From Paraglomus brasilianum (Eukaryota): a DNA stretch of 46,291 nt. How positions within the stretch are numbered: the stretch's first letter is position 1; each line of letters starts with the position of its first letter. Shown here one piece after another: positions 1 through 42,865 of the stretch. The position numbers and the translations under genes were made by a program. The DNA lies in the NCBI GenBank assembly GCA_910592345.1, contig CAJVPI010000173.1:1-46291 (forward strand). Direction: 5' to 3'. A model generated the notes under the pieces. The model was given only the letters and a program-made list of their open reading frames with translations, had not been told where the DNA came from and made no database searches.

Positions 1-107
1 ATGTGACAAGGGTTGGACATGTCGCAATAGTATTTGAAGTTTTCGCCGTTGTTAATGATATGATTTCCACACTCTAAACAAGAGCAGGGATTAAATTGGA
101 TTGACAT
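1..107 (-). CDS. 5' end of a gene running off the window edge; paralog of the HMG-box gene at 26492-27427
   Basis: ATG at 107 reads MSIQFNPCSCLECGNHIINNGENFKYYCDMSNPCH. The paralog reads NHIINNGEDFKYYCDVSNPCH. Nucleotides 1-66 match 27312-27377 with 2 mismatches. The HMG box itself would lie outside the window. Confidence 0.75.
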   Translation of the reverse strand, partial: MSIQFNPCSCLECGNHIINNGENFKYYCDMSNPCH

Positions 108-886
108 TTTGTATATAGGCCGTTGTTGTTGATGGGGGGGAGGTTTGGCTTTCTACTTTGCACGTTTGTTCACTTTATATCTTTATAAGCATAACCTATT
201 CGGTTATTTGAATATGTGCGACAGTATTGGACATTACTCTTGTTAACACTAATTAGATTATGCTATGGATTGTCTATGCATTAATGAATAGGTCGTGTGC
301 GTGTTTTTGGAAAGAAAAAACGATCCAATTTGATTGATACAGTAAATGCAGTAGTATTGGGGGTATTGACTAGTCAACGATAAATGGGAATACATACAAG
401 ATCAAGATATTTTTAAATCTTAATTAGTCGAATGCATTTAAAAGTGTCTCTACCGAAGTAGGATCGAATGCATTTAAGGTTCGGTGGGCATTAATATATT
501 CGTATGTTGACAATCCCATTATGGATATCACTCATCACATTGTAATGCATAACAGCCGTATTGGATTTTTTCATAATGCATTAAGTTGTGCGTTCCACTT
601 AGGGCAATGCATTAGTTGTACATCCAGATATGTTGCAATGCATATGGAATGTATTACCCATAGTTGCATTGTACATATCCACATTAAGAGAAATAAATTG
701 CCAGTTATATCGAAAACGATTTTAAGTACGACGGCAAAAACAACAGATTAGGATCATCATTATGTAAGCGATAAGACTAATATTTTCGTTTTCTGTACTA
801 TGAGATTTCCAATTTCATGCAAGCATTAAAGGTATTTAAAGTACGAATTCGTTCAAGAAGTAGCCTTTCTCACAGGGTAAAAAAAG

Positions 887-1318
887 ATGAGGCCAAATAA
901 CCTTGTTTTTGAAAGCAAGTACCTCCTTCCCGAAAGCAAGTACCTCCTTCCCGAATACAAGTACCTTCTTCCCGGATACAAGTACCTTCTTAATGAAATG
1001 GACGTAACGTACTTGCACGACTCTATGTTAGACGTTACGGAGCACATAGTTGAATTAAGAGAAACGACCGTAAAAATGGCCTGGATCTACTATTGTGGGA
1101 AACTGTTGACTTGCTTCCCAATACCCAGTTTGTCCGAAGCCCGCGAAATGGCTAAACAACACGGATGGACGAAAATTGTCGATGACTTTACCTTTTTTAG
1201 ATGCATCCTAGATCTATATCTAGCTGGTGTGCAACGCAAGCACGTTGCAAAAATAGCGTTGAACGTTTGGATAAGAGCTTGTGACTCGGCTCGAGAAAGT
1301 TTCAATATTTCATCATAG
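887..1318 (+). CDS. Divergent HMG-box-like protein, possibly truncated in helix 3 (possible pseudogene)
   Basis: KIVDDFTFFRCIL...QRKHVAKIALNVW...SARESF fits the HMG helix1/helix2/helix3 pattern (NxFxxFR...W...F). It is preceded by the same beta-strand plus FPIPS segment seen in neighbouring genes. The stop falls early in helix 3. Confidence 0.55.
   Translation: MRPNNLVFESKYLLPESKYLLPEYKYLLPGYKYLLNEMDVTYLHDSMLDVTEHIVELRETTVKMAWIYYCGKLLTCFPIPSLSEAREMAKQHGWTKIVDDFTFFRCILDLYLAGVQRKHVAKIALNVWIRACDSARESFNISS
911..991 (+). repeat. 21-bp coding minisatellite, ~4 copies (ESKYLLP)
   Basis: GAAAGCAAGTACCTCCTTCCC x2 followed by two variant copies. Confidence 0.95.
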
Positions 1319-2372
1319 AAAGCTTTACTAAGTCCGACTATTATACGACTTCGACAACTCAGACTTTTGAGAATCCAACATCCTTGACATTGGCTACAGT
1401 ATACAAGGGATTTCAGTCGTGAAGTTTGTAATATGCATAGGTTACCGCATATACCATAACTGGAATTTGCCCTATCGGTAGTTGGGAAGGGTGGTATTTA
1501 CTGAGGAGCGGAAGCTCGAGATAAATCTGGGTCGTGGTTTAAATTTTTACTCTCTTCAAGCGGATCGGTCGGTTATCAAATAATCTCAGTGATACATCCG
1601 AGTTATAATAGGTGCCATCTTACATGTTAACCAGATACCTTGAGCTATGGGTATTTATGGGATTATTTTATGTACATATAAAAAAAAAAGAAAAGTATTA
1701 CTCATTTTAATAAAGCAGTGTAGAAATATTAATTATCTCGCCCAGTTGACGTTTTTGCGTAAAACTGTTTGACCACACACAATGGCAATCATGCTCATTG
1801 GAATTAGCCCACTTTACTATTCCTACATACATGATTTTACTTTAAAGTCGTCAGTCTAATCGTAATGTCTTCCACATTCCTTTTCGGGTAAGAGTATAGC
1901 TGGATTCATACTTGCATCACAAAGTTGGTTAGTCATTCGTTTCAATGAAAAAATTGCTTCTCCTTTACCATATTCGCACAAACACGTGTCTATTACAGTT
2001 GCCTTAATATTAAGTACTATAAAATTTCACGTATATATCACATGATACAAATGGGTAAAGGTGGTATACTTTATCTACACGCTAACTCGTCGCGCCATTG
2101 GTGAAACGATTGATAAGAGAAAGGTAGACAATAAATATTCTATATATGTATTCCGGTTACTATTTATACAAATGCGGCTGACACCAAAAAACAAAGACAC
2201 CATTAAATGTCGCGTATTGTAAGGAGAAAGGGGTTAAGGCTGGGCGACTATAATACGTAACTGAATACAAAAGCCATATAGTTTAGGGCGTATATATAGA
2301 ATTCCATAGAACGTACCAAAGCACACTTATAAATAAATTTAACATCAATACGAATCTATTAACAAATTAATA

Positions 2373-3836
2373 ATGTCCAGACAACGTTCACACAAACGCA
2401 GCCTTTCCACCTCTCCCTTCCGTGACTCTTCAACCTTACCACTTACCGAACCTTCGTCACACTCCATTGCCTCTCCTTTATCGATCCTATCAACCCTCAA
2501 AGCAACAGACATTCCCATTCCCGACGTTACTTTTATCCGCCGTCTGCTCCACTCGTCCAGCCGAGCAAAATCAAAACGCATCGATCCACCGCGTCCGCCA
2601 AATGCTTTTTTTTTGTTCCGCAATGCTTTGCATTTCCACGTATCTAACCACAATCTCAGAGTACCTCAAGTGTCAGTCGCTGCGGGGAGGTTGTGGGAAG
2701 AGGCAGGAATAGAGCTAAGGGATGAGTACACCAAACTGCAAGAGATAGCAAAGCAGATCCATTTGGAGATGTATCCAGGATATGTATATCGCCCAAGGAA
2801 GAATGGCACAAGTGGATGTGCTACTGACAAAACCGGTTGCAATGAGCATGCTATTCGTAAAGACGATAACAGTAATAATACAAGTTTGAGCGATGACGGC
2901 CGTGTCAATGTCACCAATAATAATCTTGCTGAACGTGGGGAATCTGCAAAGAGTTCAGAAATAAAATACAGTCCTATCACGCTCAACAATAACATGGCTT
3001 TCCCTCCCCTTACAAACTTTGCTTACGAGAACTACAGGCCAACAACGACCGGCGAGTCTTGCATGCTGCAACCCTCGGTTCCTTCTTCTTCTTCTTCTTG
3101 TGCCCAGTGGTGCAATATTGCTGACCATCATGATGCGTACAGCGACTATAACGATTCCAATGCTTATTGTGCTAAGATTGCGTGCAATAAAACATACGAT
3201 GGACATAACACCTATAGTAACACCTATAGTAACACCTATAGTAACACCTATAGTAACACCTATAGTAACACCTATAGTAACATTTATAGTAACACATATA
3301 ATAGCACGTATAATGACGTATACAGGGTTCCAGTTCTAATTCAAACTCAAGCTTACGTTCCTCCTTATTCGGGCTCCATCCATGGAATGGTTTCATATCA
3401 CACACATTCGGGAGAAGTTCTATCATCATCAATTTATAGCGGTATTAACCGAATGAATGTCACTGCACATGTGAAGACGCTGCGGAAAGATATTGTGATG
3501 AGAGAAGAAGATATTAGCATGAGCAAGGCATTGTATCAAAGAAAAGAGGCAAATCAAGGCCAAAGTGGAGAAGAGTATTGTTTGATTAATCAAGTAGATC
3601 AAATCGATCAGAAGTATATATACTATGAAGTAGACCAATGTAATAATAACAAGTTGTCACCCAGTCTATCTCTTTCTTCCTTTGATAACGTTCATCCTTT
3701 GTGTTTTAGTAACAACAAGCCTAAACTACTCATTCAATCTAATGGCATCGAACATAGCAACTCGATATGCTTGGATGATTATGATTTCAATGATGGTGAT
3801 GGGGCAAGTGATATGGCAATAGTGAAGAGTGAATAG
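2373..3836 (+). CDS. Canonical MATA_HMG/SOX-type HMG-box transcription factor, 487 aa
   Basis: PPRPPNAFFLFRNAL...QVSVAAGRLWEEAGIELRDEYTKLQEIAKQIHLEMYPGYVYRPRK is a complete sequence-specific HMG box with the YPxYxYxPRK tail, followed by a long low-complexity C-terminus. Confidence 0.93.
   Translation: MSRQRSHKRSLSTSPFRDSSTLPLTEPSSHSIASPLSILSTLKATDIPIPDVTFIRRLLHSSSRAKSKRIDPPRPPNAFFLFRNALHFHVSNHNLRVPQVSVAAGRLWEEAGIELRDEYTKLQEIAKQIHLEMYPGYVYRPRKNGTSGCATDKTGCNEHAIRKDDNSNNTSLSDDGRVNVTNNNLAERGESAKSSEIKYSPITLNNNMAFPPLTNFAYENYRPTTTGESCMLQPSVPSSSSSCAQWCNIADHHDAYSDYNDSNAYCAKIACNKTYDGHNTYSNTYSNTYSNTYSNTYSNTYSNIYSNTYNSTYNDVYRVPVLIQTQAYVPPYSGSIHGMVSYHTHSGEVLSSSIYSGINRMNVTAHVKTLRKDIVMREEDISMSKALYQRKEANQGQSGEEYCLINQVDQIDQKYIYYEVDQCNNNKLSPSLSLSSFDNVHPLCFSNNKPKLLIQSNGIEHSNSICLDDYDFNDGDGASDMAIVKSE
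3207..3314 (+). repeat. 12-bp coding tandem repeat (NTYS)
   Basis: AACACCTATAGT x6 perfect plus 3 degenerate copies. Confidence 0.95.
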
Positions 3837-4293
3837 GAGGGGTAGTGTAGAAGAGAAAATCGTCAATTTGGCTAGTGCGTGAGTAGATTGGGATTACTGT
3901 ATTGGACAGGAGATCATTTGTTATTTTCGGCTTGGTTGTGATTAACTACCTATTGAGGTAGCAATAATGCAATACACGAACAATGTCTCCATTATGTTCT
4001 CTGTTTAAGAACAGTTTACTACAGTGTAAATAACACAGATATCAATATTGTCAACTAGAGAATTTAAAAACATGCTTTTGTATCGATTTTCCCAATTGAG
4101 CTAACACTGATACAATTGAATACTTAACAATGGCTAAGCCATTCCAGTCAATGTCAGACGGGGCCAAATTGGAAAAATCACAGCCAACAAAAAAACAACA
4201 ATAATAACAATAACAATAACAAACAATAAACCAGTACGTAATACCTGTTACTGTAATAATAATGTAGTAATTAACTGTTACACGATGGATCTC

Positions 4294-5493
4294 TTAAAAA
4301 CCGAGAATCAACCCCTGCAAGGCCTCGGTGCCTCTTTCACCCAGCAACCAGCTAATCATAGCCAGTGCCTTCGCATCCAATCCAACGTAATATGTCGTTT
4401 TAGGATATTTGGCAGTCAATGCATTGACAATAGCGTCAGTGACCAATGCAGGCGGAGGTATTGTGTCAATGAATTCGTTGCTGTATTTCCCAGCTGTACG
4501 ATATTGCTCCTTGTAGTGCACGATAACGGCAGGGTTGATGTGACGTGGAGTCTCTCGGAATAAATTGAGATCGAGGAAATTCTGGTTAGTCTCGTGAGTG
4601 AGACGCGTGTCTATCATACCTATATGTCATGGGATGTAAAGAATGCGGGGCATCAAAGAACATTAGCACGCAATATACAAAGAGTAACAATCAAATATCA
4701 AATAAAAATAACATTTTCTCGCTTGGTCTATCGCTTTTATAACACTACCATCTCAATTTCCTAATCATCGTTTCTTACCGGGCTCAATCAACGACACAAA
4801 CACGCCTAATCTTCTCAACTCCATTCTCCAAACCTTGGTCAACGCTCTCAACGCAGCCTTGGAACTAGAGTATGCGCCCATGGATATAGTCGCTTCCCAC
4901 GAAGCAATGCTGCCAATATTAATAACTCTTCCTCTGCCCTCTCTCAACATGGGCAAGAAAGCCTTGGTCAAATTAGCAACCGCAAAGAAATTAGTCTCGA
5001 AAATCTCCCTGAAAGTTGCATCAGACGTTAATTCAGCTTGCAAGTGTTTCGCTTGAGCTGCATTGTTGATCAAACCGACCAGCGGTTTATCACGACCAAG
5101 TACATTGCGGACAATGTTTTGTGCTTTTTGGATATCGCCCTTGTCGGTTACATCCATTATGATGGGTATTAGGTTTCCTTGATTTGTATTCACGTATTGT
5201 TGGAAAAGATGAGTCAGGTCGTCAGCATCAACTTGTTTGCGTACGGTCGCAAATACAGTGTAGCCCATTCGTGCGAGAGTAATGGCAGCATTTTGACCAA
5301 TGCCTGTTGATGTGCCAGTTACCAGGACAGCCGGGTGGTATGTGGGAGTTGGTTTTTCGATTGGGAAAGGAGGGGGCTCATTGAAAATGTAATGGAAAAC
5401 GAGACAGAGGATGTAATTAATGTAGTAGCTAATGTAGTCAATGACGAGGGTTGCGTGAAAGAGGACCTCTTTTAGAAGAGTTAGCGTAGACAT
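4294..5493 (-). CDS. Classical short-chain dehydrogenase/reductase (retinol/17-beta-HSD-like), 2 exons: 5493-4779, 4619-4294; ~346 aa
   Basis: TGTSTGIG nucleotide-binding motif, NNAA, catalytic YSSSK and a hydrophobic N-terminus. The GTAAG..TAG intron at 4778-4620 joins IEPG to MIDT in frame. Confidence 0.92.
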
Positions 5494-6224
5494 TGTTAGA
5501 GCAAGAATGCTTCAATGGACAACCAATTAATTAAATAAATAATTCGAGGTGTCAGAATAACGGGCCGAGCAAGTAGGAAAAGAAGCCAAAATCTACCAGT
5601 TGATCAATTGCCCTCCGCTCCGTATATCCCCCACCTTCAGTACATGTGAAAGTATGTTTAAAAGTGTTACAGGTGTACAATCACGAGATTAATTACGAAT
5701 TTAGTATCCCAACAATAGAATGCATATGCATATCTGCAAATAGGATACAGGTCTTATGATTGATTGCGTTCCTTTTAGTTGCACCTGTGGGGGAAGGGCA
5801 CTTAAACTAACATGCAAGATCTTGGCTAAAAATAAGCTTTGATATCAAAAGGCATGAAAATCTCTTTAATTTTAAACGAATAATATTTAATTTGGTCCGT
5901 TTTTGGTGATACAAAAGCCATTCAAATGTAATCACATAAGAATGGTATGTTTTTGGCGCGCTTTCAAAAAATTTACTAATTAGATCCTAATTAGATAAAA
6001 CAAGCATTTAGTCACTGTTTGACATGTTGCGTTTGTAATAAGGGACTTTATAAATAACCTAATATAGTTAGAACATTAGTTTATCATTTGTAGCGCCCTT
6101 TTTTACGCGTCAGCCCCCCAAAGATATATATTCATTGCAATGTGACTGTGACACATTAGAAATTTTAGAATATAATATATTAATATGTCTTGAGCGTTCC
6201 TTTTTTTGCCTTCGCAGGTTAAAC

Positions 6225-6945
6225 ATGTCCGCATCAACTCTGCGTCGCAGAAGAACAAAATGCCCAGACCCTCGAATTTTGCTGATGCTGGCAAAACAGT
6301 ATCCCAACCCTACGCTTACTGCCAGCAATAATGGATTTTCAATTTCTTGTAATAACGGGACTACGTTCAAAATCCCTTTTCTGTTACCAGCGCAATTTTT
6401 TGCAACTTCGGATAGAAACAAAAATCCAAACATCTTTATGGTGTTTCGGAAACTCTTTCTACTAAGTCTTCAGAAAAACCGTAATGCTTTATCTTCAGAA
6501 CAAAAGTACGTTTCGATACTTGCGGGACAGGCGTGGGATAACCGAGACCAGTCTGCCCGAGATACGATTCGATGGTACGCAGACCAGTTGAAGCAATATA
6601 AGAAGAGAAATGCTACCCCTTCTGTGACAAGCTTTCCTTATGTTGTTCCATGCATAGGTTGCGGTATTTTCAATTTGTTAAACCCACTAGGTATGCGCAC
6701 TTGTAGAGATTATATCAATTAACGCAAAGCATTATTTTAGTGTCTCGTATATCTTTATGAAAACTAACAAGTTTCTTGTCTTATATAAAGCATCTGCAAC
6801 CTTTGCTCCGTGCTTGAACGCAATGGTTGTTTCTGCAGAACCGTTATTACAAGCACAAGGTGGTCTTAATGTGGCCGAAGATTTATCCAACGTCGACCAA
6901 ACCGAAAGTTCGATTGATCAGACTTTTTATAACGAACCAAAATAA
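6225..6945 (+). CDS. Divergent HMG-box protein type A1 with C-terminal CxxC; exons 6225-6690, 6791-6945; ~206 aa
   Basis: KNPNIFMVFRKLF...QKYVSILAGQAW...ARDTIRWYA, then PCIGCG. Intron GTATGC..CTAAC..AAG (6691-6790) joins in frame to the 6757-6945 ORF. Start codon uncertain. Confidence 0.8.
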
Positions 6946-8711: not shown

Positions 8712-9327
8712 ATGGACGACGGCAATTCATTAATGCCTAACGATGTTACTGTGGATGCTCTTCAAAATAACATCCGTATAAGATGCGCTGAAGAAACTCT
8801 CGCTACGATCGAGATTCCTTCGGCTCCGCTTGAACTCCGCAGAAAACCCATCAATGGATTTATTCTATTCAGAAACTTGTTGTTTGCCGCTCTGGCGAAA
8901 ACCGACCAATTTCTCAATTATCGTTGCTCTTCGGTAGCAGGTACAGCATGGAAAAAGATGCCAAGCGAGGTAAAAGATAAATTTAGTAAAACTGTAATGG
9001 AAAGCAAACATTCGAGACAAAGTGAGAGAGGCAGAAAAGACAAGAGACAGCATTCCGACGAGAATCACAAGAATATTAAAAAACGACGACAATATAAGGA
9101 CCGTAAAACTGTGTCTACAAACCCTACGATAACCACGTCGCGCTCTTACGAGCAATGTACGGTTACTGACACAGTTTTTACGTATACATGTAACTCATGT
9201 GGACTCATTAATGATGTGAGCATTCAAGGTAAATACTGTATAAAATTTAACTGTTATGTTTTGTCTAGTTTTTAAGTTTACTAACCTTCTTTCCATTTTC
9301 TCTTATGTAGACATACCCCATTTCTAA
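8712..9327 (+). CDS. Divergent HMG-box protein type B1 with C-terminal CxxC; exons 8712-9228, 9311-9327; ~177 aa
   Basis: RRKPINGFILFRNLL...CSSVAGTAWKKMPSEVKDKF, a basic linker, then YTCNSCG. Intron GTAAAT..CTAAC..TAG (9229-9310). Confidence 0.82.
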
Positions 9328-9925: not shown

Positions 9926-10013
9926 AGTTGGGGACCTGTCTCAGTTCTGGACCGAGACAACTGAGTTCTGGGCTGATCTGAACCAAGACAGATCCCGAAC
10001 TCAGACACAACAT
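9926..10013. mobile_element. Truncated copy of the Ginger-like MITE family
   Basis: Shares GTTGGGACCTGTCTCAGTTC-like sequence, GAGACAACTGAGTTCTGG repeats and the ..CAACA end with 42866-42980 and 29652-29777. Confidence 0.7.
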
Positions 10014-11123: not shown

Positions 11124-11781
11124 ATGGCGACAGAAGATGTAAGCCAAGAATATCCTAACCCGGTACTGGGTATAATTACCACAAGAGGGCACGAATCAGC
11201 TTTAATAAGCTGTGCAAACGGACGAACGTTTGAATTTTCTCTTCCCTCCCCGGCACAGCTTGCTTTGATTTTTGGTGATAAAAAAATACCAAATAATTTC
11301 ATGGTATTCCGCAAACTTTTTCAACAAAGTTTGAGAAAAGATGAAGATCCGTTATGCTTTAAACAGAGGCGGGTTTCAATAATTTCAGGTTGGGCATGGA
11401 GAGCAGGAGATAATTTTGCTCGAAATAAATTCAAGAGGCTTGCCACAGAAGCGAGGCAATATCAAAATCAGGTCGCACCGTCAATGTCAAACCTTCCTTT
11501 GGTTTACAAGTGTGGCGGCTGTGGACTCTATAATAGATTGAGTTCAGATGCTTCAGGTATATTTTTTTATTTGTGATAATATAATACGCAAATATCAATT
11601 AACGCAAGTTTTATGGAGGCTAAAAACTTTCTCTTGCTTTATCTATCATCTAGGAGTATGTATGGGCGTTTCTGAGTTGTTGGTGCCAATACCAGGTATT
11701 CCCGAAGAGTCTTATCAAACGGAGAGTCTCTATCAAAGTGAAGATTTATATCATCAGGTTGTTTACAGACAATCATTATAG
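11124..11781 (+). CDS. Divergent HMG-box protein type A2 with C-terminal CxxC; exons 11124-11556, 11654-11781; ~186 aa
   Basis: KIPNNFMVFRKLF...QRRVSIISGWAW...ARNKFKRLA, then YKCGGCG. Colinear with A1 (YPNP, ISCxNGxTF, PAQ). The GT..AG intron at 11557-11653 joins in frame to the 11548-11781 ORF. Confidence 0.82.
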
Positions 11782-13856: not shown

Positions 13857-14655
13857 ATGGCTAATAATCCGTTCCCCAATGGACCCTTGCCTGTTGGCAA
13901 TTCGACCACCGATTTACGCGACTTTTTGGAAAATATGATAGTCAAACTTAATGAAAATGAACGCACATACAGCATAGAATTTAGTCAGAACGTCATCCAA
14001 GTTGCCATTCCTCAGAATTCTTCCAACTTTTCCGATGCCTTGAAGAATTCCAATAGTTTCATACTGTTCAGGACTCTTCTCATGAAGACTCTAAACGGAG
14101 CCAGTTTCGATCGCTGTTTCAACAAGCTGACATATTGTTCCGACATCGCGGGTAAAGCTTGGGGTAAAGCGCCTCCAAAGCTAAAGAAAATCTTTAAAGA
14201 TCTTTCGGACGAAAGTAAACCTTTTAGACAAAGCCAAGCGAGCAGAAAAACAAAAACCCCGGCAAACTCAATTCCCACAAATCGCACTCGCAAGACGACT
14301 ACTCCAGTCGGGGTTGGAGAAGGCCTCGAGTATTCCCATCAACGGAACGAAAATAAGGCCGCAAACTGGATTTCCATAAAATGCACTTGCAAGATGATTA
14401 CCCAACTCGGGTTTGGAGAAGGCTTCGAAGTTGGTAATGGGTTTTTATATTCATGTGGAAAATGTAATCAACCTATTCAGCTGCAAGGTAAAATATGGTT
14501 TGTTATTTGGAATTGTCATTAATGCCTTAGAACTAAAAATTATCTCTTTAGCGGTCATTGCCCCGTTCTCTCACGAAGCTGCACCCGGCCAGTTCGACGA
14601 CGTCATCCACTACGAAGATCAGGTGGAGGAATCGAGTTGGAGCTCTTCAGTATAA
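13857..14655 (+). CDS. Divergent HMG-box protein type B2 with CxC...CxxC; exons 13857-14487, 14552-14655; ~244 aa
   Basis: KNSNSFILFRTLL...CSDIAGKAWGKAPPKLKKIFKDLSDESK, then KCTCK and YSCGKCN. The GTAAAA..TAG intron at 14488-14551 joins in frame to the 14413-14655 ORF. Confidence 0.82.
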
Positions 14656-15531: not shown

Positions 15532-17555
15532 TCAATTTGCCTCAATATGACCTGAGACGAGATTATTAGCAATAGAGGTACCGTCAACGCTAATATCTCT
15601 ATCCCCCACAAAATCCGTTTTGGCCCATTCGGGCAATTCAGTCTCATACTTCCAACCGTCACCTTCATATTTCAAAGCATGTAGCCAAATACAGAGCTGA
15701 TGTGGCAATGGATCATTAAACTTTTGGTTCGCACATTCTTCACAGTAATCTTCGTCCAAACAGGGTGTTTCTTCATCGGCTATTGGAGTACCGCTCGCCT
15801 CATCTTCATCCTGTTCGTCAGCATTGTCGTTCTCGCTTATAATGAGCTTTTTGCCGTTTGCTAAATTCGCCTCCTCGCCGGTTTCCGGTTTTATTACGAC
15901 GGCCTTTTCTTCGTCGCCCAACCCTTCTTGCATAAAATACTCGATTACTTTCGCGGTGGTTTCCTGATCAAACCCTCCCTTGCCTTTAGATGGACCCCAT
16001 GCACTTGGGTGATTATATAATGGATCATTAGCAATAGGATATCCAAGGTACTGGAGATGTACACGTATTTGATGAGTACGGCCTGTTATCGGTTTACCTG
16101 AAAAAAAGAGTCAACGAATTAAGGCAAGTAGTATAGGAAAAGTTGGACGAGCGGTTATCAGACGCTTTACGCTTTAAACTGAATACGCCACATTTACGTA
16201 ACATCCATCATAAAGGATACATCTGACAACGGAAGTGTGTCCATTGTAATGCATTCTGTTGAAAACAGTCGTGCTAGGCTTTCCATCTGAACTGACCGAA
16301 TTTAATCCTAGTTTATGAGAAACGCATTTGATTGGTTGGTCGCATATAATCTCTTCGCTGATTGAGGGACAAGGCTGGAGAAATTGATATCATTTACGAT
16401 TGTCGAAGCAACGGATTATGCAAGGCAATGGGTAATACATCTGATATTCTTACATCGGGAATTCGCCCAATACTCGGCACACGTACTCTTTCTGGACGTT
16501 TCGGGAGCGTATCTGTTCTTCCAATTCTCGAGCTTTCTGCTTGCTCATTGCGATTAGCGTTATTCCCGAGGTTAGTCTATCTAGTCTATTAATTGCTGAT
16601 AAAGAGAGTGTGTGAGTTACAAGTCGCGTGTTGAATTATACTCAAACATGACTCACTATGAAAAGCATCTAACTGATGTTCCTTGCGTAAGATGTGCAGG
16701 ACGGTATTGTAGAGATATCTCCCACTGGGATGAACCTAAACGCAAGTCGATTGGCCGTCAGCAGTTGAAAAACAAAATATTATCATCGACAGCCGGCATT
16801 AACATGAACCACAATATCCGTTGACTGTAAATTTCAGCGACTTACCGGAATGCTTCCTGGTTTGTTGATGACAATAAGATCATCTTTCCTGCAAATAATC
16901 TTGATCTCCTCTGCAGTGACGGGTGGCTCATGTCTATGGATCTTATGAGTGATAAGGTCTTGATTCCTTAAAATCGTGTCTGTTGAGACTGTCTGCTTGT
17001 TGACAGTTATCGAGCCTCTTTTTATTGCTCGTGCCTTCAATAGGTGAACGACATATTATTTATTAAGACGTTACGTACGAAAGCAACGTAAGAATTACCA
17101 CCATATCGTCATCATTCTTATGTACATAATATTGCGGCGAGCGATCTCTGAACTCAGTAGTGAATACATCTAATATGGTCCTCCCGATCCACCGTTTTTT
17201 TGTAAAAGTTCGATATTCGTAATAATACGGCTTCACTTTACGAAGATCTATAAATAAAAAATATTACAAATATTAATAATAACAACAAAGATATTCGTGT
17301 ATAACCCATTAGAAAATGCTTGATAACATTTGACTGAGTATAAACCAAGCTACCGTTTTCAAAGTGATATTCGACTTCATCTATGCTACAGATATCCGAA
17401 ATGTCTTTACGATTAAGTTGTTTATTGGAAGAAATTCTTAACTTCTTTCTAACTTCATGTTCAGAGGCATGATATCTGTGCTTCGACGGAACAGTAATAG
17501 TGTCTTTGACAAGGACGATAGCATTGTTGTCTATTGCGGAGGTATTAGAACTCAT
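15532..17555 (-). CDS. RluA-family pseudouridine synthase (Pus9/Rib2/RPUSD2-like), 7 exons: 17555-17354, 17247-17126, 17034-16846, 16735-16657, 16595-16454, 16357-16221, 16097-15532; ~478 aa
   Basis: The spliced product contains [29 protein letters not shown], catalytic [33 protein letters not shown] and IWLHALKY. All six introns are GT-AG and preserve frame. Confidence 0.95.
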
Positions 17556-17561
17556 TTAAGG

Positions 17562-18501: not shown

Positions 18502-18972
18502 TCACCCTCTTCTTCTCCCCCTTCTACCAATATTATTTCTCCTCCTCCTCTCACTTCTCCTTTCCTCCTGAACAACCGGATCTTCATATACCCAGTCACT
18601 CTCTCTCACCATCCTGTTCCTTGTCACAAGTTCTCTCAATTGTTCCAATGCACGCCGTTCAGTCTCTGGTACTTGGTTCCACATCTTTGATGCTAACCTG
18701 GACAGTCTACTCATGTCTAACTGGTAGAGATCGCAATCGGAATGTTCACAAGAAGGCAACAAATCGCGATATTTCTCGGCCCACCGTCGTATGATAACAA
18801 ACCTATTGGGACAAATGTTGCCTCGACAAGAAGATAGAACGTCTTGGATTGTCCAGTTGGAGGTGGAGTAGCCCCAATGGGGCCAAATAACTGAATGAGA
18901 ACATCTAGCCGTTGTAATAACAATTTCTACCAGAGGGTGGTCTATCCTGAGAGATACTCGAGCCTGGGCCAT
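18502..18972 (-). CDS. Divergent HMG-box protein type Z1 with Cys-rich loop insertion and Arg-rich tail, 156 aa
   Basis: CPNRFVIIRR...LPSCEHSDCDLY..DMSRLSRLASKMWNQVPETERRALEQLRE; upstream RCSH; C-terminal RRRRNNIGRRGRRRG. Confidence 0.82.
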   Translation of the reverse strand: MAQARVSLRIDHPLVEIVITTARCSHSVIWPHWGYSTSNWTIQDVLSSCRGNICPNRFVIIRRWAEKYRDLLPSCEHSDCDLYQLDMSRLSRLASKMWNQVPETERRALEQLRELVTRNRMVRESDWVYEDPVVQEERRSERRRRNNIGRRGRRRG

Positions 18973-21969: not shown

Positions 21970-23034
21970 TTATAAATATTGACCTTTAGTCGAGTCGTTA
22001 ATACAAAAGTACTCTCTCTCCATACCGCCTTCAACATTGCCCATTATGATGTTGTTTATCGTGTTGTTATATCCAATATTATGCCTAATCTCTTCCGTTC
22101 CTCGTCTTTCTGCAAGAAAATTTCCATTGGTAGAATGAAAAAAACCACCGCTCTCTATTTGCATTTCGTTATAATCCTGAACAGAAGGCAAGCCCATACT
22201 TTCTCTTGTTTCCTCGTTTACGTTCCATTGTATTGGCTGGTGAGTCAGCGCGCTAAAACCAGACAAACACGTAAATGGTTCTTGATAAATTATCGGTGAG
22301 GTTGATGGAAGAGAAGTATGAACAAATGGATTAGACATGTCGTGATGATGCATTTGCGTTGTACGAACATATGCGGCGTGTTGGACATATGGAGGAGGCG
22401 AGTTTACTGACTGATATACAATTGGTGTGCTTGGCGGTAGATGCGATGGCACGGCATGCATTGCCGTAGACAGTTCGTCGTTGCACGTAGTGTTAATAAA
22501 AACATTATTTTTGTCGCTTGTAATTTCCGTTGTGCTCTCTTTATTTCCAATATTGCTCACTTCACTTGCCTCTAGTTTCTCTTCATTTCCGCTAGTCTTG
22601 TCCGTTGTTGCTGCTTCACCCTTTTTGACTTTTCGTACTCTCCCATTACCACCATCTTCTCTGATAAATGAATTAATATTAACAGGTATCTGTTTTTGTA
22701 CTTCTTCCCTCCATTTATCCAAGTGTTTTTTAACACGCTTATTAGCATAATACCAGATTTTTGCTGCAAGCTTTGAAATGTTTCCTCGGTCGGGATTATA
22801 CAAGGTACAAGCCTTGTGCACACAACGAGGCAAGTGCTCTTTGAAAGCTTGAAGAGAAACACGAATAACCAGAAATCTGTTTAAAGCGACTTGCTTATGG
22901 CAGCGTGAAGCCAGTTCCGAAACAGAGAGTATCGGAAAAGCGAAAGTGTGTACTGTAGACTCACACGGTACGGTTATTTGAAGGTTGGCGTTAGGAAGTA
23001 GGGAACAGCAATATCGATTGTCGTGTGAACACAT
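21970..23034 (-). CDS. Divergent HMG-box protein type Z2 with Cys-rich loop insertion, ~354 aa
   Basis: ALNRFLVIRVSL...LPRCVHKACTLYNPDRGNISKLAAKIWYYANKRVKKHLDKWRE, followed by a Pro/Ser/His-rich tail. First ATG is at 23034 (MCSHDNRYCC). Confidence 0.82.
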   Translation of the reverse strand: MCSHDNRYCCSLLPNANLQITVPCESTVHTFAFPILSVSELASRCHKQVALNRFLVIRVSLQAFKEHLPRCVHKACTLYNPDRGNISKLAAKIWYYANKRVKKHLDKWREEVQKQIPVNINSFIREDGGNGRVRKVKKGEAATTDKTSGNEEKLEASEVSNIGNKESTTEITSDKNNVFINTTCNDELSTAMHAVPSHLPPSTPIVYQSVNSPPPYVQHAAYVRTTQMHHHDMSNPFVHTSLPSTSPIIYQEPFTCLSGFSALTHQPIQWNVNEETRESMGLPSVQDYNEMQIESGGFFHSTNGNFLAERRGTEEIRHNIGYNNTINNIIMGNVEGGMEREYFCINDSTKGQYL

Positions 23035-26491: not shown

Positions 26492-27427
26492 TCAAAGTGT
26501 GCTCCGAATATTTGCTGCCTCTATATATTTGTTTATTTCTGCCGCAAGATTTTCTATAGCCTTTTTAGCAGAGTCGGTTTTTCCCTTCCAAGTCTTGCTT
26601 GCGAATTCGCTAATATAACATTGAAAGCCACCATTCCGGAATTCCCTTTTCTTATAATCTAGGTTTTTGGATAAGAGTGCACGGTATACCATAAATGGAT
26701 TAACATGCTTCTTACCCTTTCCCCGCCTTCGCCACACCCTAATTATGTTGCGGATCTCGTTTTCCGACGATGGCAATTCAAAACGAACAGTACAGTCTCC
26801 CCGGACTGCCCAAATTTCGCCACCGATAATATCGAGTTCGGCCTTGTCACTTTCGCTTGAGTGGTGTGTGCGAATGGTGGCATTGTTGGTTGAAACGGTT
26901 GTATTCGTTTCACTATTTTCTACTGGTTCGTTGTTTAAACCAATGTCGTAGATAGTGTGGCTAGGATAATTGTTGATATAGACGTTGTAGCTGTAGCAGT
27001 TGCAGTTGTAATTGTAATTGTTGTGGTTGTAACTGTTGCCATCATAGTCGCTGTTGTCGTTGTAATAAATTGGATACTTTGAAAAGTGGCGAACAAAGTA
27101 GTAAATGTGATTGGGAGTGCAACTGAAAGAGCCATTGTTATCACTGTAGATATAGAAATCTTCGTGGTTGGGATACATGTTGCACCTAGTTATGGACTTC
27201 AATTCCTCCTCGTTCTTCACGTACTGTACAGTATGACTACCATTGTTGCACTCGGAGATGTAATGTAGGCTTTGGCTAAAGGGGTGAGCAATAAAGTAAA
27301 GAGCATTCCCAATGTGACAAGGGTTGGACACGTCGCAATAGTATTTGAAGTCTTCGCCGTTGTTAATGATATGATTTTCATTGTCCAAGTAAGAGCGGAG
27401 ATTGGGATCAGAAATGTGAAATGACAT
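26492..27427 (-). CDS. HMG-box protein with C-terminal HMG box and an internally repeated Tyr/Asn/Cys/His-rich N-terminal region, ~311 aa
   Basis: KKHVNPFMVYRALL...FQCYISEFASKTWKGKTDSAKKAIENLAAEINK, preceded by IWAVRGDCTVRFELPS. Confidence 0.85.
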   Translation of the reverse strand: MSFHISDPNLRSYLDNENHIINNGEDFKYYCDVSNPCHIGNALYFIAHPFSQSLHYISECNNGSHTVQYVKNEEELKSITRCNMYPNHEDFYIYSDNNGSFSCTPNHIYYFVRHFSKYPIYYNDNSDYDGNSYNHNNYNYNCNCYSYNVYINNYPSHTIYDIGLNNEPVENSETNTTVSTNNATIRTHHSSESDKAELDIIGGEIWAVRGDCTVRFELPSSENEIRNIIRVWRRRGKGKKHVNPFMVYRALLSKNLDYKKREFRNGGFQCYISEFASKTWKGKTDSAKKAIENLAAEINKYIEAANIRSTL

Positions 27428-28359: not shown

Positions 28360-29099
28360 CAGTTCTACCTCAGTTATATCCCCCACGCTTGTATCCCAAC
28401 CTCAGTTATATCCCAGATATATCCCTATCCGTAATCCATTCCTCGTTTATACCCCCCCCTTAATATTAATTATATTAAGCAAATGTATTAACCATATATG
28501 TGTCATTGTATTACACAATAAATCATGTCATCTCTATATGTTAGAACATGTCGATTATTTGCTTCATTTGGTTAGTCACAATTCTCGATACAGGTAAAAA
28601 ATCAAGTCACTAATTCAACGTCGAGACATAAATCAGGCCACATAATAAAATCAGGCCGTAAATCAGGCCGTACATTAAGTCAGGAAATAAATAAAAGACA
28701 GCAATTTCCAAGTTCAAAAATCAAATTACCAATTGTCAGTCTTATTAGTGTTAAACCATTGCTCATCGAAGAAATTCTTCTGACTGAAGATGTCTTACAG
28801 CAGACACAAGCAGATATGGAAGAAAATGTAAGTGAAGGGGATATCCATAAAGGTATGAAGAGAAGCGACGGTCAAGAATTTTTTAGAACAAAGAGAATTT
28901 GCAACAGAAAATGATATTAGATACATGCGCAATATAATTCGTGAATGGTCGAAACATCAAACGTCACTGATAGAATTTATTAACCAATAAAATTGCATTA
29001 TATTATCTATTGAAACGCCATACCTTAGTTATATCCCACCTCAGATATATTCCCAAAAAGCTTGGGTCCCAACATGGGAATATAACTGAGGTAGAACTG
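28360..29099. mobile_element. Non-autonomous Tc1/mariner-pogo-type TIR element, 740 bp
   Basis: TIR CAGTTCTACCTCAGTTATAT at both ends with TA on each side; internal AATCAGGCC repeats. Confidence 0.88.
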
Positions 29100-29651
29100 T
29101 ACATAGAAAGCTGTAACTTTCATAAAGATAAATAACAACTTGAGCAAAATATGCTTAGAAATTTGGCTCCTGCCATGCACCAACTTCATGTTTTACGAAA
29201 CAATGTTAACTGTTGATGCTTGTATGGTGGGGGACACAAGTACGCATCAACCACTTTCAATGCCCACGCATCATTTGGTTTAATCTCTATCGATTTGTTG
29301 AGATCAATTAGTGTCAAGGGGGATCGTTACTAAACATGTCAATGGTAATAAATTTTAAATTTTCTAAAATTGGATCAGGAAGTCTTATGACTTATTTTTT
29401 TGACAGCAAATTCTGGTCTTTTCAATCCCTTCCGATAGCAATCCATAAATCGTTTGCTCTCTCAACAGCGTTAACACTGATGTAGTTGAAAAAATCAAGC
29501 AGCGTCTGTCCATTTTCCTGCGCCGCATTAATGTGGTGTTGTTCTTGACCTTTTTGTATATGTTAATGGACAATTTGATCGGGGGAAATTGCCATGTTTT
29601 GAACCAATATTTTAAACAAGTCTTCAGCCTCATCATTCAATCTATCACCAT

Positions 29652-29777
29652 TGGACTGAGATGGCTGAGTTCTGGGCCGAGACAACTAAAATGTCTGAGT
29701 TCTGGACCGAAACAACTGAGTTCTGGACTGAGATGACCGAGTTCTAGACTAAGATGGTCTCGAACTGAGGTACAACA
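29652..29777. mobile_element. One end of a Ginger-like MITE family member, with ~20-bp subterminal repeats
   Basis: Tandem GAGACAACTGAGTTCTGG(A/G)C-like units ending in GAACTGAGGTACAACA. Confidence 0.7.
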
Positions 29778-30224
29778 TTTTCACTATTCCTGTGTTGTCT
29801 TCTCCAATTTGCATCTTCAATAAAATAATCATCATTAATAACAAAATCAATGGGTACTGTGCTATAAAGAGAAATTTGGCTTTCTCTTTTTCCTAGCAAG
29901 CTCGCGACAGAATTATGTGTGTTTCGTGGTCTACCTATTGTCAAAAAACGAGAAAATTTTGTCTTTTATTCAACAAATGATTTCCTTTTTTGTTAAGGAT
30001 TTAAGAAATCGGCTTGCATTAAGATTAGATTTGCCCAAATAACCGAACTTTGAAAAGTTATATCTCAAGCCACAGGTAATATTTGTCAAATTTCTAAACG
30101 TCAAGTGTTAATGTTTATCAAGAGGAACAAATTGACGGTTTTAAATTTTGAATTATTAATGCAGAAATTCTTGTATTTTCTTTGAAAAGTCTCAATTTTT
30201 GTTTGATGCGTACTTGTGTACATG

Positions 30225-30385
30225 GGCAAACTCGAGAAGTCGGACCTGGCTGGCTGCCCGACTTATCAAGGAAAATCTGACTTACCTAGAGAGAAAAGGG
30301 CGACTTATCGAGTGTCCGACTTAGCAAGCTTACGAATTAGCGTCATCCGATTACACAGTCAACCTCGTTAATCCGAATCCCATAT
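30225..30385. mobile_element. Remnants of pogo-type TIR elements
   Basis: GGCAAACTCGAGAAGTCGG and repeated CGACTTATC motifs related to the 32166 element; TIR-like CAGTCAACCTCGTTAATCCGAA at 30356. Confidence 0.5.
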
Positions 30386-30924
30386 TTCTGGTTCTAATTT
30401 CATTTGTCAATAATAAAATTACCTCGATTATTCGAAATTTTATAATAAATCACTGTAATCCGTAATCCAAATCTAGTTGCGAGAAATGGCATATTAAATA
30501 TTACCCTTTAATCCGAAGATTAAAAATCTCATCAGTTAATAAGCACATATCCGTTATATGGTGTATATGTTTACACATATATCCTACCGCTTATAAATAA
30601 TAAACTACTGGTTTATAATAATAACAATAAAAATCTTTATTTTAATTACTATTTTATTCACAAAAAAAAAAGAAGCCTCATTTGATAAATATCCTTTACA
30701 AAGTGCTTGTTACTTACATATTATATACTAATAATATAGACTTTGCATAAAACTTGTATGTTTTACTAACAAATTGGTAGAAGTTGCCAAACACTTCTGT
30801 CAAAAAGATGTATTTATCACAGACATAAAATAAATGTTATTTTCAAAATAGTGACAGACTCTTGTAGGACATTGCTTCATTTGCCAATGCTCAGTCGTCT
30901 GTGGTAATTTTTTTTTTCGATATA

Positions 30925-31113
30925 CGGTCAACTCTGTTTACACCGAACGGGTTGGCATAGCTCTCTATGTCCTTCCGAAACCGGTATATGGAAAGTTTAT
31001 AAGAGACTCTGGTATAAATAAAGAATTTTCATATGAAACGAACGGTGCGCAAGAATCGGTCCGTCCGGTATAGAGAGATTCCGATACACTTCCTGTATAA
31101 ACAGAGTTGACTG
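30925..31113. mobile_element. pogo-type MITE, 189 bp
   Basis: TA|CGGTCAACTCTGTTTACAC ... GTATAAACAGAGTTGACTG|TA. Confidence 0.85.
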
Positions 31114-32165
31114 TATATAATTGATTACCTGAACAATTTCCACGCAGAATTTTTATCATTAATGTACTTCTCATTTTAGGAGTTGTTTTTTTAATAGTTA
31201 ATCAACCCAGCCATTATCTCCAGTATTCAGCAACAACTGATGCGCGTACAGTAATTAAAACGGACGATAAAAGTGCATGCACTGTTTTGGCCCAGAGCCA
31301 TCGGTAAATATTAAACAGTAATTTAGTAATACTTATGCTTGTTGTGTTTAGTTACCATATTTGTGATAACTACCATGATAATATATAATAAAGTGAGAAA
31401 CTCCACTCGTGTTATTCGATTTAATATATTGATAATATTATAATTGTATGTTAACAGATTGTGTGTAGGCAAAATTTTGGGCGCTTTCCCCGGGAGTTTT
31501 TGTAGTCAACTTTAAGGTCTAATATCAGACACCATATGGATTCAAACAGAAATTGTTTAATAGATACTCTTTTTTTTTTTTTGCGTATATACATATAATT
31601 TATAGAAAATTAAGGCTCGTGAATTTACTAGATACTATTAGTAAATATATCATCTATTATTAACTTCGTTACTCATTGTATCAAGCATGAAACAATCTAG
31701 ATTTTTTATTTAGAATTTCCTTGTCTCCATCAAGGGGTTTGATAATACTGTTACGAGGAACTTTTATCCATAACAAAGTGCTCGCTAAAGTCCAGTTTAA
31801 GGTTGATGTGAAGTCGTCGGGCCGACCAAAACAGTCATGTTATCGAGAGCTCATTATAACGAAAATCGTTTTATAACAAAGTTTATATTTGAGTAACATT
31901 ACTGTATATCAAGAAATAATTTCTTTATTAACAAATTATTTAAATTACACTATTTTGACTTAGTAAGAGTAACCCACTTATTACTAATCGCACTTCTTCT
32001 ATCATTCATCTTTTTCTTAATTGTCGTGTCGCAAACGAGTCAAAAAAAAATTGTTAATTGGTTTAATTTAATATTAATATGACTATGACGATAAATTGAT
32101 TACCAATTATAGTGATTACACACTTCGTTAAATCGAGATCGTTTTCCTAATCTTGGTTCTACATA

Positions 32166-32991
32166 GGCAGACTCGATAAGTCGGTCGACATATGTAAAGT
32201 CGCGATATGCTGTAAGTCGGCCAACATTCTTTAATGCTATATATGTAAATTACCCTCGATAAGTCGGTCTCACATGATATTCGGAGAATATCATTACTAT
32301 TTCAGTACAGTTGATCATATAAATTTTTACATCTTATTAATTATTATTATACTGTAACGCTAATATAAAATACTTGTGTAAAGATAGGATAGATGCATTT
32401 GTCGATTTCAGGAATATGGAACTGAGATTCCTACTTTAAATATTATCGACTGGGTTGCAATCGCTTATTGATCAAATGGTCGTTGATTATTCCGTCATGA
32501 GAGGAGAAGACCATATTGAAATTGACAGTACTTTAGAAACAAACGATATTCCTAATAATAATGAAATTATTGCAGCCGTCCAAGAAGCTCCTGAACACCT
32601 TTAGCGTTCAATCGTAGGTGTAAAACAAATAAAGAACGCAAAATTCCAAGAAGCTCCTGAGGATAAAGGAGAAGATGACGACAAAAATGAGGTTTTTATG
32701 GTATCTAACAAAGTTGGCTTTAGAAAGTATTCAAAATTTATATGACTATTTGCAGCAGAATAACAAACAGTTTATTATTTCAGGGTTAAGAGACTTAAAA
32801 TGGGAAATTGTAATTGTGAAGAAGCGAACGGATTCTTTGATACAAACGAGCATGGATATTTATTCAGAATAATGGTTTTTCATCTAACGATTCGCTTTCT
32901 ATAAAAATAAATTTTTACTAAATTAGTCACGTGGATTCGATAAGTGGTCTACCAAGCCACAGCCATCCGTGGCCGACTTATCGAGTCTGCC
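32166..32991 (+). mobile_element. Internally deleted pogo/Tigger-type element retaining a decayed transposase C-terminus
   Basis: TIR GGCAGACTCGATAAGTCGG at both ends flanked by TA. The internal frame ALESIQNLYDYLQQ...LRDLKWEI...IQTSMDIY resembles the Tigger/CENP-B-type transposase tail. Confidence 0.82.
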
Positions 32992-33029
32992 TATTGCTAT
33001 GTATATAACTCACACAAAAACATTATTAT

Positions 33030-33151
33030 AGTGTTATATCGCGAGTTGTAATTATCCTCACTATATCGAGCCTAATTTTTATTATAACTGACTTGGTTCC
33101 AGAAAAAACCTCAACATATCAGGGGATCTGTTTATATATCGAGAGTGACTG
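33030..33151. mobile_element. Solo end of a pogo-type TIR element
   Basis: Repeated TATATCG motifs ending in TATATCGAGAGTGACTG|TA. Confidence 0.45.
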
Positions 33152-34014
33152 TAACAAATAATTCACGTGACAAGTTGTCAATTAGGTAATTGTAAGCCGA
33201 TTGGGAGTAAATTAGTTTATCCGGTCACTTTATGACACGATCATAATAAATTTTCTTGTACATAATAATTTATTTATTACACACCACAGCATCGGATCTA
33301 CAGGCTACAGCAAATGTTCAGTCGCTTATTTTATAAGTCACACTATTGTAAGATGGCCATTATCGGAGATTGCCTAATGATTTCTTGGGCAAAAGCCCGA
33401 TCCGTGTGAATTCTTAATCACCATAAGATGTCTACCCACCAATAATAGTATACACAATATTAATATATAAAAGATATTAATACAGAACCGATTGGTTTAA
33501 TATTGAAGGTCTTATTCTACGATTATGTATTGCTTCCAATAATTCACACTAGCGCTTAATGGTTCTACGCTTTTAAAATGTGCAAATAATGGAAATAATA
33601 ATTGGCCGAATTGAAGGGACGATCCCGGGTCCAAGAAAATTCCGACAATTGGCGAGTAACCAAAAATAGTCGTGATATAATAGATTTTGGTCATCCATGG
33701 CCATTTTTAGATATCCATTTATGAGCTTTCATTGAACAGATGCAATAGCTTCGTTGAGAAGTCTTTGACACAACTTGCACCTCGATCAGCATTTATCAGT
33801 ATACTCCTGCATGAACCTTTGTATCATTGAAATTGAGAACAGTTAAGGTATTTGGTTAATTTTACTTTGACCTTTTTTTAATTGAATCATAGCGTCGTCG
33901 TCGAGAAAAAAAGCAAAATAATAAATTAATTAACCAACTAGACATTAATATTAAACCAACAAATGGTTGGCAAGGTCTCACTAACAAAATATGTGAGTTT
34001 TGTTATTAAGTGTT

Positions 34015-35173
34015 TTAAATAGTATGCCGTAAATCTGTCACGAGATCGATTGGCTGATAAAAAGAAGGAACGTTCATAACTGTTGATGGTAGTAATATTT
34101 GTCCATAAGTTGCTGTACGATTGCCCAAAACTTGTGCAGGTGGTCTTATTGGTGAAGTAACATATCCATATTGTGAGTGTGAGGCTTGATAAAGTGGTGG
34201 TCTATGAACAAGGTAGGATAAGTCTTGCTAAAAAGAGAATATAGATATTTCGTATTAATATGAATGAACGTCAATTAAATTATAATTTGGATATTAATTA
34301 ACGCGATGCTTTTATGGATGAACATACAAAAGGTCCAGGTGTAAATTGTGACCAAATACCCGATACATTGCCACCAGACAACACCCTAGTCCGAGTATTG
34401 TCTTGAGACGCATTATTATTAGAAGTATTATTTCCATTTATACCATGCAATTGAAGATTAGGCTGGTGTTGACTTGGTTGATATTGTTGGTAACGTTGTT
34501 GAAACTGCTGAAGCTGCTGATCCTGCTGGTCTTGTTTTTTACTATATTTTGCAGCCGCAACTCTTTCATCAACTTTGTTAGTTTTACTTTCTTCGTTAAT
34601 GCTTCTCATAAGTTCATCGCCTCTTTTTATATAATCTTCACAATTTCCATTAATTTCACCAACCACCTTCACTTTACTCGATCTCTGCTTTCTAACCTTC
34701 TGGATTTGTGATTGATTCTGCTGTCGTCGTCGCTGTATACCGGGATTAACATGTACAAATTTCTCAGCATATTTCGACCACTTGGCCTCAACGGTACTTC
34801 TTAACTTGGCAAAGAAAGTTTTTATTTTGGTATTCTCGAATACTTGACTAGAAAGTTTGGATATTTTTGTCCAGTCAGGCTTGTGTAGCAAGCATTGAGC
34901 AATATGGCATTCTGGCCAGTCTGTTTTGGAATCATTGAGCGACATGCGAAGAAGGAGAAAGCTGTTCGTACAATTATTACCAGAACAACGGCGTATAATG
35001 CTTTCTGAAGAGAGAGGGCGGAGTAATATATCATGCGAGCAAATATTACTCCGGACGTTAATACATATAGAGTCTATCCATATATATGATACTACAGTCT
35101 GTGGGAAATGCGGAGATGGAGGAGATGGAGGAGGAGTAGAGAGTGGTGGAGAGGAAATATTTTCCGTTGTCAT
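34015..35173 (-). CDS. Divergent HMG-box protein type Z3 with Cys-rich loop insertion; exons 35173-34328, 34227-34015; ~352 aa
   Basis: CTNSFLLLRMSL...WPECHIAQCLLHKPDWTKISKLSSQVFENTKIKTFFAKLR, upstream ICSH and a Gln-rich tract. The GTATGT..TTTTTAG intron (34327-34228) joins to an open Pro-rich exon. The helix-2 Trp is replaced by Phe. Confidence 0.78.
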
Positions 35174-42854: not shown

Positions 42855-42865
42855 CAATCTGTAGA

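Follow-up and report, generated by a model that had tools for sequence, protein, structure and literature searches.

An array of HMG-family genes in Paraglomus brasilianum

Arbuscular mycorrhizal fungi carry large HMG-box families and, to our knowledge, are without an observed sexual stage. Here we analyse a 46,291-nucleotide stretch of the genome of Paraglomus brasilianum, an early-branching member of these fungi (contig CAJVPI010000173.1, positions 1 to 46,291; hereafter the window), in which ten HMG-like open reading frames (ORFs), g1 to g10, lie within about 35 kb (positions 887–35173). In six-frame translation they display the pattern N-x-F-x-x-x-R ... [AS]-x-x-x-W; the G+C content of the window is 31–42% per kilobase and spliceosomal introns are present. 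Genes g1–g6 are on the plus strand and g7–g10 on the minus strand, flanking on its two sides a pseudouridine synthase gene (PUS; PF00849). PUS and a short-chain dehydrogenase/reductase gene (SDR; PF00106) are the sole Pfam-recognizable genes between array members. All Pfam-based statements about neighbours and flanks rest on the 106 window ORFs scanned, among which 87 other ORFs of at least 62 residues yielded a single match, a DDE transposase outside the array.

The initial annotation of this stretch had described ten HMG-like ORFs and the 5′ end of an eleventh paralog, interrupted by only two housekeeping genes and converging on PUS. The ten ORFs stand, each being recovered by the profile test described below, as do the two housekeeping genes at the sensitivity of Pfam (86 of 87 other ORFs without a match). 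The eleventh paralog is present as a fragment, g0 (1–107, minus strand), which corresponds to the 5′ end of a paralog of the N-terminal accessory region of g9: its positions 1–92 match 27312–27403 at 88% identity over 92 nt (blastn). The fragment runs off the contig, however, and no HMG sequence belonging to it lies within the window; that part would lie off the contig. The six plus-strand and four minus-strand genes do converge on PUS, but g0, on the minus strand at the left edge, breaks the pattern. Calculated by hand, the odds of ten among twelve neighbours being HMG genes are about 1e-17 if 1.5% of roughly 10,000 genes are of this kind, a background that may differ for the cryptic members (the gene count is that of Paraglomus occultum, PMC9453076; for the HMG share, compare the more than 100 HMG factors of Gigaspora, PMC4771724).

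Profile comparisons demonstrate the common ancestry of the ten domains. When each ORF was scored with a hidden Markov model of the other nine, whose training segments were centred on a motif chosen by eye, all ten were recognized at 13.3–56.4 bits (17.2 for g2 and 19.5 for g10), and for each ORF none of 2000 shuffles reached the real score. No further array member was found among the 860 six-frame ORFs of at least 30 residues, the best other ORF reaching at most 8.9 bits. A partly circular count, made with a motif written from the array ORFs themselves, gave nine matching ORFs in the window, whereas 200 shuffled windows averaged 0.34 and held 3 at most.

The two Pfam families that the initial annotation had put forward for HMMER searches, HMG_box (PF00505) and MATalpha_HMGbox (PF04769), recognize few of these domains. 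The gathering cut-off of PF00505 (25.4) is passed by g2 (35.1 bits, E 1.9e-8), but the other nine, which we call cryptic, fall under it: g4 (E 0.003) and g5 (E 0.11) match below the cut-off, seven of the ten have no HMG match and PF04769 gives only a faint match, to g4 (E 0.016). Weak Pfam rows for Ets, Cas12f1 TNB, HET, Lipase_chap and RasGEF, all below cut-off, were set aside. More sensitive comparisons connect the cryptic genes to the HMG family. A profile of the nine cryptic domains, g2 excluded, returned HMG boxes as the top 8 of 17 PDB rows (E 0.014–0.58), the best matches being the capicua, HBP1 and SOX boxes; a search with g5 matches a metagenome protein, P0009 (E 6.6e-9), that itself passes Pfam HMG_box at 39.3 bits; and Atlas features (0.93 for g5, 0.88 for g8) have HMG and MATA-HMG clusters of Mucoromycota as their nearest. 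In hhalign comparisons the g3–g6 profile aligns with g9 (probability 93.6, E 2e-7) and with g2 (probability above 91), the g3–g6 and g7/g8/g10 groups can be matched to each other beginning with the final strand (probability 65.8, E 6e-5), and g1 is the weakest member (probability 19.7, E 0.0012). The HMG kinship of the nine cryptic genes is supported by this profile and language-model evidence and by the fold evidence below, least strongly for g1 and g10. One other match, P0008 (1106 residues, nine stretches), was rejected as false, reading by eye having found Trp-rich repeats behind a helicase-like N-terminus.

The predicted structures of g5 and g7 combine the three helices of an HMG fold with a preceding sheet of three strands. 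The AlphaFold2 model of g5 has a core predicted local distance difference test score (pLDDT) of 88–96 per block and helices at residues 58–72, 81–94 and 97–114; for the g7 model, HMG boxes make up 29 of the 50 fold rows and superpose on residues 51–123 with root-mean-square deviations of 2.1–4.4. In both models the box is preceded by the sheet and one short helix, and helix 3 has its full length of 18 residues. The three-helix fold that the initial annotation had looked for is a prediction for these two, the members that were modelled. Searched against the PDB with Foldseek, neither model found a match at E ≤ 0.001, and the rows displayed contained no HMG box; weak rows of RNase H-like and L18-like proteins (template modelling score, TM, about 0.2) were dismissed as noise. 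In the Atlas structure search, TM did not exceed 0.39 in any row listed. Among the PDB and fold rows, in which HMG matches to g7 start at residues 42–55, no solved HMG box extends over the N-terminal sheet or has the Cys-containing loop insertion.

The residues expected to contact DNA are unevenly retained. A YPxYxY-type C-terminal tail after helix 3 is a motif of sequence-specific (MATA/SOX/TCF) HMG boxes; it is present in g2 alone, and its counterpart in the PDB alignments reads HPDW. The Asn ahead of helix 1 is kept in nine of the ten, and Lys plus Arg outnumber Asp plus Glu in all domain cores. A Met/Ile/Val intercalator with aromatics at −1 and +2 is the signature of sequence-specific boxes (PMC2999568); in the form F-[MIV]-x-aromatic it is complete in five (g3, g4, g5, g6 and g9), while the intercalating residue is Phe in g2 and Thr in g1, and the +2 aromatic is missing from g7, g8 and g10.

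Members of the array and their accessory modules

The canonical member is g2 (2373–3836, plus), a MATA/SOX-type HMG-box protein of 487 residues whose PDB matches are SRY/HMGB1, LEF1 and SOX and whose YPxYxY tail precedes a long low-complexity C-terminus; about seven in-frame 12-bp tandem units lie in its tail region (within 3205–3320). At the other extreme stands g1 (887–1318, plus; 143 residues), the most degenerate member (13.3 bits in the leave-one-out test), for which an annotated protein exists. It has Asp in place of the conserved Asn, in addition to the intercalating Thr, and a read-through check placed a stop inside helix 3, so it is possibly a decaying gene. Four in-frame 21-bp tandem units occupy its N-terminus (within 908–990).

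Two sub-groups can be distinguished among the cryptic genes. The first comprises g3 (6225–6945; predicted intron 6691–6790), g4 (8712–9327; intron 9229–9310; annotated model P0020), g5 (11124–11781; intron 11557–11653; annotated P0001) and g6 (13857–14655; intron 14488–14551; annotated P0003), all on the plus strand. In all four a CxxC motif follows the box and a phase-1 intron follows within 10–15 residues (donors 6691, 9229, 11557 and 14488). The motif forms part of a C-terminal hairpin in g5, behind the predicted N-terminal sheet, and is extended to CxC...CxxC in g6, where the linker between box and CxxC also carries a 68-bp internal duplication (14262–14329 versus 14361–14428, 79% alike). 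Protein g3 is 40% identical to g5 (E 1e-27) and g6 is 46% identical to g4 over 68 residues; g3 clusters in the tree with metagenome protein P0007 (support 99/99), and the tree does not resolve the four as one clade. Because of this, their local duplication rests on the shared intron and motif. The CxxC is kept in metagenome relatives of the group, among them P0009 (300 residues), which contains two complete sheet-HMG-CxxC units and is, to judge by its sequence, a fused tandem duplicate of the g3–g6 type. Prediction of a g5 homodimer with zinc scored 0.00, which is uninformative on a shared CxxC site.

The second sub-group is formed by g7 (18502–18972), g8 (21970–23034; P0002 and P0005), which has a long tail, and g10 (34015–35173; intron 34228–34327; 31% identical to g8, E 4e-8), which has a Gln-rich one; all are on the minus strand and lie together on one side of a branch with support 92/98. 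They share invariant residues His26, Cys49, Cys75 and Cys80 (g7 numbering), the last two within an insertion between helices 1 and 2. These positions are invariant among paralogs that are only 22–25% identical, and we infer that the His/Cys/Cys/Cys set is a putative zinc site. The deposited model of g7, P0006 (98 residues), splices out helix 1; it looks wrong, because the intact frame, which encodes the predicted three-strand sheet and the box, is conserved in P0004, P0011 and P0012, and it would hide the HMG box from public annotation. Exact look-ups with the unspliced frames of g2, g3, g7, g9 and g10 were unmatched, which indicates that the deposited models differ and nothing more.

The remaining cryptic gene, g9 (26492–27427, minus), carries its HMG domain at the C-terminus behind a region of about 200 residues rich in Tyr, Asn, His and Cys; no Pfam match was found for g9, this region included. 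By hhalign it aligns to the g3–g6 profile, yet it is without the CxxC. Comparison of motifs, introns and branching demonstrates local duplication within both sub-groups (g3–g6 and g7/g8/g10), and the earlier proposal that array members bear different accessory modules is upheld by the CxxC of g3–g6, the His/Cys set of g7, g8 and g10 and the N-terminal region of g9.

The two interspersed genes are both on the minus strand: SDR at 4294–5493 (PF00106, E 2e-38) and PUS, an RluA-type enzyme that serves as a synteny anchor, at 15532–17555 (P0013).

Conservation, transcripts and turnover

Relatives of the array proteins were found only in Paraglomus and metagenome records. Between g7 and L001, a relative that is 87% identical to the array in the non-coding DNA downstream of g7, nonsynonymous divergence (dN) is 0.030 and synonymous divergence (dS) 0.356, giving an omega of 0.086 over 131 codons (Fisher p 2e-11). 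A 56-codon piece resembling g10, which sits in another genomic context, gives an omega of 0.056. In L002 (1181–1349) and L003 (856–1024), 169 nt that match the g10 box at 91% identity lie within unrelated DNA; the frame of this piece ends soon after the start of helix 2, and capture or rearrangement of a fragment, or a relative with different splicing, would account for it. In P. occultum the ortholog of g8 is 91% identical over 54 residues of the box and 78% in the tail, and PUS is 88% identical; the ortholog model is 5′-short, starting inside the box. Locus tags (3705_t for PUS, 3706_t for the g8 ortholog), both on a 22,316-base contig, point to linkage of the two genes in that species. By these tags, the synteny around PUS that the initial annotation proposed to check would hold for g8; there is no g7 model between the neighbours there.

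Among the sequencing runs listed for the window none was labelled as RNA; run X1, guessed to be RNA and covering a small share, yielded contigs from which GT-AG introns of g5 (1 difference in 438) and of g10 (3 in 805) are missing. Being spliced, these contigs show transcripts of g5 and g10. Unspliced near-identical contigs fall on g8 (22112–22459, 1 difference) and g9 (27086–27355, 0 differences), SDR is covered and PUS is spliced. There was no X1 depth over g1, g2 and g7 and, among the pieces listed, no near-identical contig for g3, g4 or g6, which says nothing about silence. On the 3′ end of PUS, a contig (15331–15938) differs by 22 letters and 27 gaps whereas the adjoining 5′ contig shows only 0–1, which may reflect variability of the 3′ end or the presence of a second organism.

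Identity between paralogs across the domain is 8–42%. Turnover of the array is judged slow because paralogs have diverged this far while copies in different species are as conserved as the housekeeping gene PUS. The earlier view of a local birth-and-death array is therefore retained in part: local duplications, a birth (g0/g9) and a decay (g1) agree with it, but turnover is slow rather than rapid. On these comparisons the array is old, the members that could be tested are kept by selection and turnover is occasional.

Outside the array members, the window contains a Pogo/Tc5-type DNA transposon (43805–45331, minus) with 31-bp terminal inverted repeats (43805–43835 and 45301–45331) and BrkDBD, HTH_Tnp_Tc5 and DDE_1 domains in separate frames, its transposase frame being broken. 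A short dispersed repeat of units of about 11–12 bp, in both orientations and partly palindromic, occurs in three copies (9934–10013, 29692–29753 and 42865–42974); X1 contigs "go back" at 9937–9971, and the repeat probably represents a satellite or a miniature mobile element. A 155-codon ORF (40284–41112, minus), with hydrophobic N-terminal stretches, a possible upstream exon and no Pfam match, may encode an unannotated membrane or secreted protein.

Origin and possible roles of the array

Our literature search, which left subscription journals mostly outside, found neither an HMG cluster of Paraglomus nor zinc-binding HMG boxes of arbuscular mycorrhizal fungi treated in any paper, and "HMG" is absent from the main text of the P. 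occultum genome paper. The expansion of HMG genes in these fungi, invoked by the initial annotation, is borne out by the more than 100 HMG-box factors of Gigaspora rosea (PMC4771724), P. brasilianum being a fungus of the same kind. The closest published counterpart is an HMG tandem of five repeats in Rhizophagus irregularis, of which one member is induced when two isolates coexist (PMC7490403). Both belong to the same fungal group and superfamily and are arranged in tandem, and the nearest Atlas clusters are again those of Mucoromycota. The P. brasilianum array differs in having ten genes rather than five, nine of them below the Pfam cut-off, with paralogs only 8–42% identical, and in the sheet and two putative zinc add-ons, which do not figure in the description of the R. 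irregularis tandem as far as the accessible text goes. It is thus larger and more diverged than the published tandem and mostly hidden from Pfam, with predicted structural additions.

Other relatives are more distant. SOX, TCF, capicua and HBP1 boxes, which include the best PDB profile and fold matches, share the Asn, the aromatic-intercalator-aromatic arrangement and the Ser/Trp pattern of helix 2; no solved box among the rows compared extends over the N-terminal sheet or has the Cys-containing loop insertion. The MATalpha_HMG class (alpha1, PF04769) is another diverged HMG class long missed by sequence search, with a short helix 3, a fourth helix and, in Pezizomycotina, a downstream Y-[LMIF]-x3-G-[WL] motif (PMC2999568). 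The faint g4 match and Atlas rows at 0.87 and 0.83 recall this class; however, the P. brasilianum genes are without its motif, helix 3 is long in the g5 and g7 models and PF04769 stays below its cut-off.

We consider the locus to be probably, though well short of certainly, an old and retained tandem array of ten HMG-family genes whose products would be minor-groove-binding, DNA-bending and separately specialized regulators of transcription. An ancestral MATA-type HMG gene would have been copied by unequal crossing-over, the copies losing the canonical YPxYxY tail except in g2. The sheet would have replaced the tail against helix 3 or turned into a surface for partners. Two zinc-binding add-ons may then have arisen, a C-terminal CxxC knuckle in g3–g6 and, in g7, g8 and g10, a His/Cys/Cys/Cys staple that would tie the sheet to the loop between helices 1 and 2. 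Selection would subsequently have held each copy, while now and then a new one was born (g0/g9, 88% alike) or an existing one decayed (g1). By analogy with other HMG genes of arbuscular mycorrhizal fungi, a developmental-regulator role is plausible, the likely field being nuclear, developmental or parasexual programmes. A bolder and rather unlikely extension is that the nine cryptic genes constitute two unrecognized zinc-binding HMG subclasses (sheet-HMG-CxxC knuckle and sheet-HMG with a His/Cys/Cys/Cys staple), long kept, in the mycorrhizal lineage that branched off earliest, as one ordered and co-regulated cluster that would serve as a control panel for parasexual development or nuclear identity.

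The cryptic members might instead keep the HMG fold as architectural or RNA-binding proteins, or as decoys titrating the partners of MATA-HMG factors like g2. The profile and fold matches include SSRP1 and Abf2, proteins whose binding shows no sequence preference; the YPxYxY tail is missing in nine of the ten, and the sequence-specific signature is incomplete in g1, g7, g8 and g10. We nevertheless hold this to be unlikely, given that the full F-[MIV]-x-aromatic signature is present in half of the ten and the Asn in nine, and that capicua, HBP1 and SOX are the best PDB profile matches.

The initial annotation had offered a compatibility or self-recognition supergene as one possibility. In Mucorales, SexM or SexP is flanked by genes for a triose-phosphate transporter and for an RNA helicase (PMC3834313; PMC7490403), and a putative mating-type locus of arbuscular mycorrhizal fungi combines HD1/HD2 homeodomain genes with a choline transporter and a phosphoglycerate mutase (PMC13443276). 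As a mating-type, compatibility or self-recognition block, the array would have haplotypes that differ between nuclei or isolates. Such a reading draws on the role of HMG genes in setting sex in Mucorales, a related fungal lineage whose locus likewise encodes HMG-box regulators, on the induction of an HMG tandem member when R. irregularis isolates coexist (PMC7490403) and on the faint MATalpha_HMGbox match of g4. A class diverged at 83–92% also exists for g4, g7, g9, g10 and SDR (in X1 for g4, g9, g10 and SDR; 91% versions of g7 in P0004, P0012 and L001), in principle a second haplotype. Its divergence is, however, similar to that of P. occultum (PUS 88%, g8 box 91%), with an omega of 0.09, and fits a sister species under purifying selection. 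Since a second version of SDR, too, is diverged (56 differences in 449), a second Paraglomus in X1 is the simpler reading, and the diverged X1 contigs on g4, g9 and g10 were dropped as extra paralogs. Copies of the same type are nearly invariant: 0–1 of 172 residues of g4 differ in all three metagenome proteins, 1 of 156 residues of g7 in P0011 and 2 of 1335 nt of the g10 region in L004 (99.85% identity), as are the X1 contigs (0–3 differences on g5, g8, g9 and g10), and no deep alleles were seen among the few copies compared. Whereas the Mucorales locus has one HMG gene in two idiomorphic forms between fixed flanks, there are ten paralogs here with SDR and PUS as neighbours. Neither the transporter and helicase nor the homeodomain, choline transporter or phosphoglycerate mutase genes are present in the window by Pfam scan, the array running off the left contig end, and the MATalpha motif is found in none of the ten first exons. 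With near-identical copies, no mating-locus neighbours and a broken convergent layout, the supergene has become quite improbable, weakened only, the allele sample being small.

That the array is mostly neutral duplication debris, with g2 the sole working gene and the others decaying, is scarcely credible: the stop in helix 3 of g1, the lone g10-like piece of L002 and L003 and the 5′-short g8 model of P. occultum would fit it, but frames are open through helix 3 in nine of the ten and the His/Cys positions stay invariant at 22–25% paralog identity, and for g7 and g10 the omega values (0.086, and 0.056 for the g10 piece) and the spliced contigs (of g10, as of g5) largely refute it. A different fold mimicking the HMG helix pattern in the nine cryptic ORFs is very unlikely in view of the transitive sequence link through P0009, the 17.2 bits that g2 scores with the profile built from the cryptic nine and the 29 of 50 g7 fold rows that are HMG boxes over the same residues.

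Nine of the ten HMG-like genes clustered in Paraglomus are thus invisible to Pfam, old and under purifying selection where this could be tested, with likely zinc-binding additions, predicted from sequence, that occur in no solved HMG box among the matches. With its ten genes, its pair of synteny anchors and the residues specified for putative zinc and DNA binding, the locus forms a compact test set, and it makes it less likely that an HMG cluster of arbuscular mycorrhizal fungi is by default a mating-type locus. If the zinc-binding HMG subclasses are real, their domains escape Pfam, and the HMG repertoire of these fungi would be undercounted.

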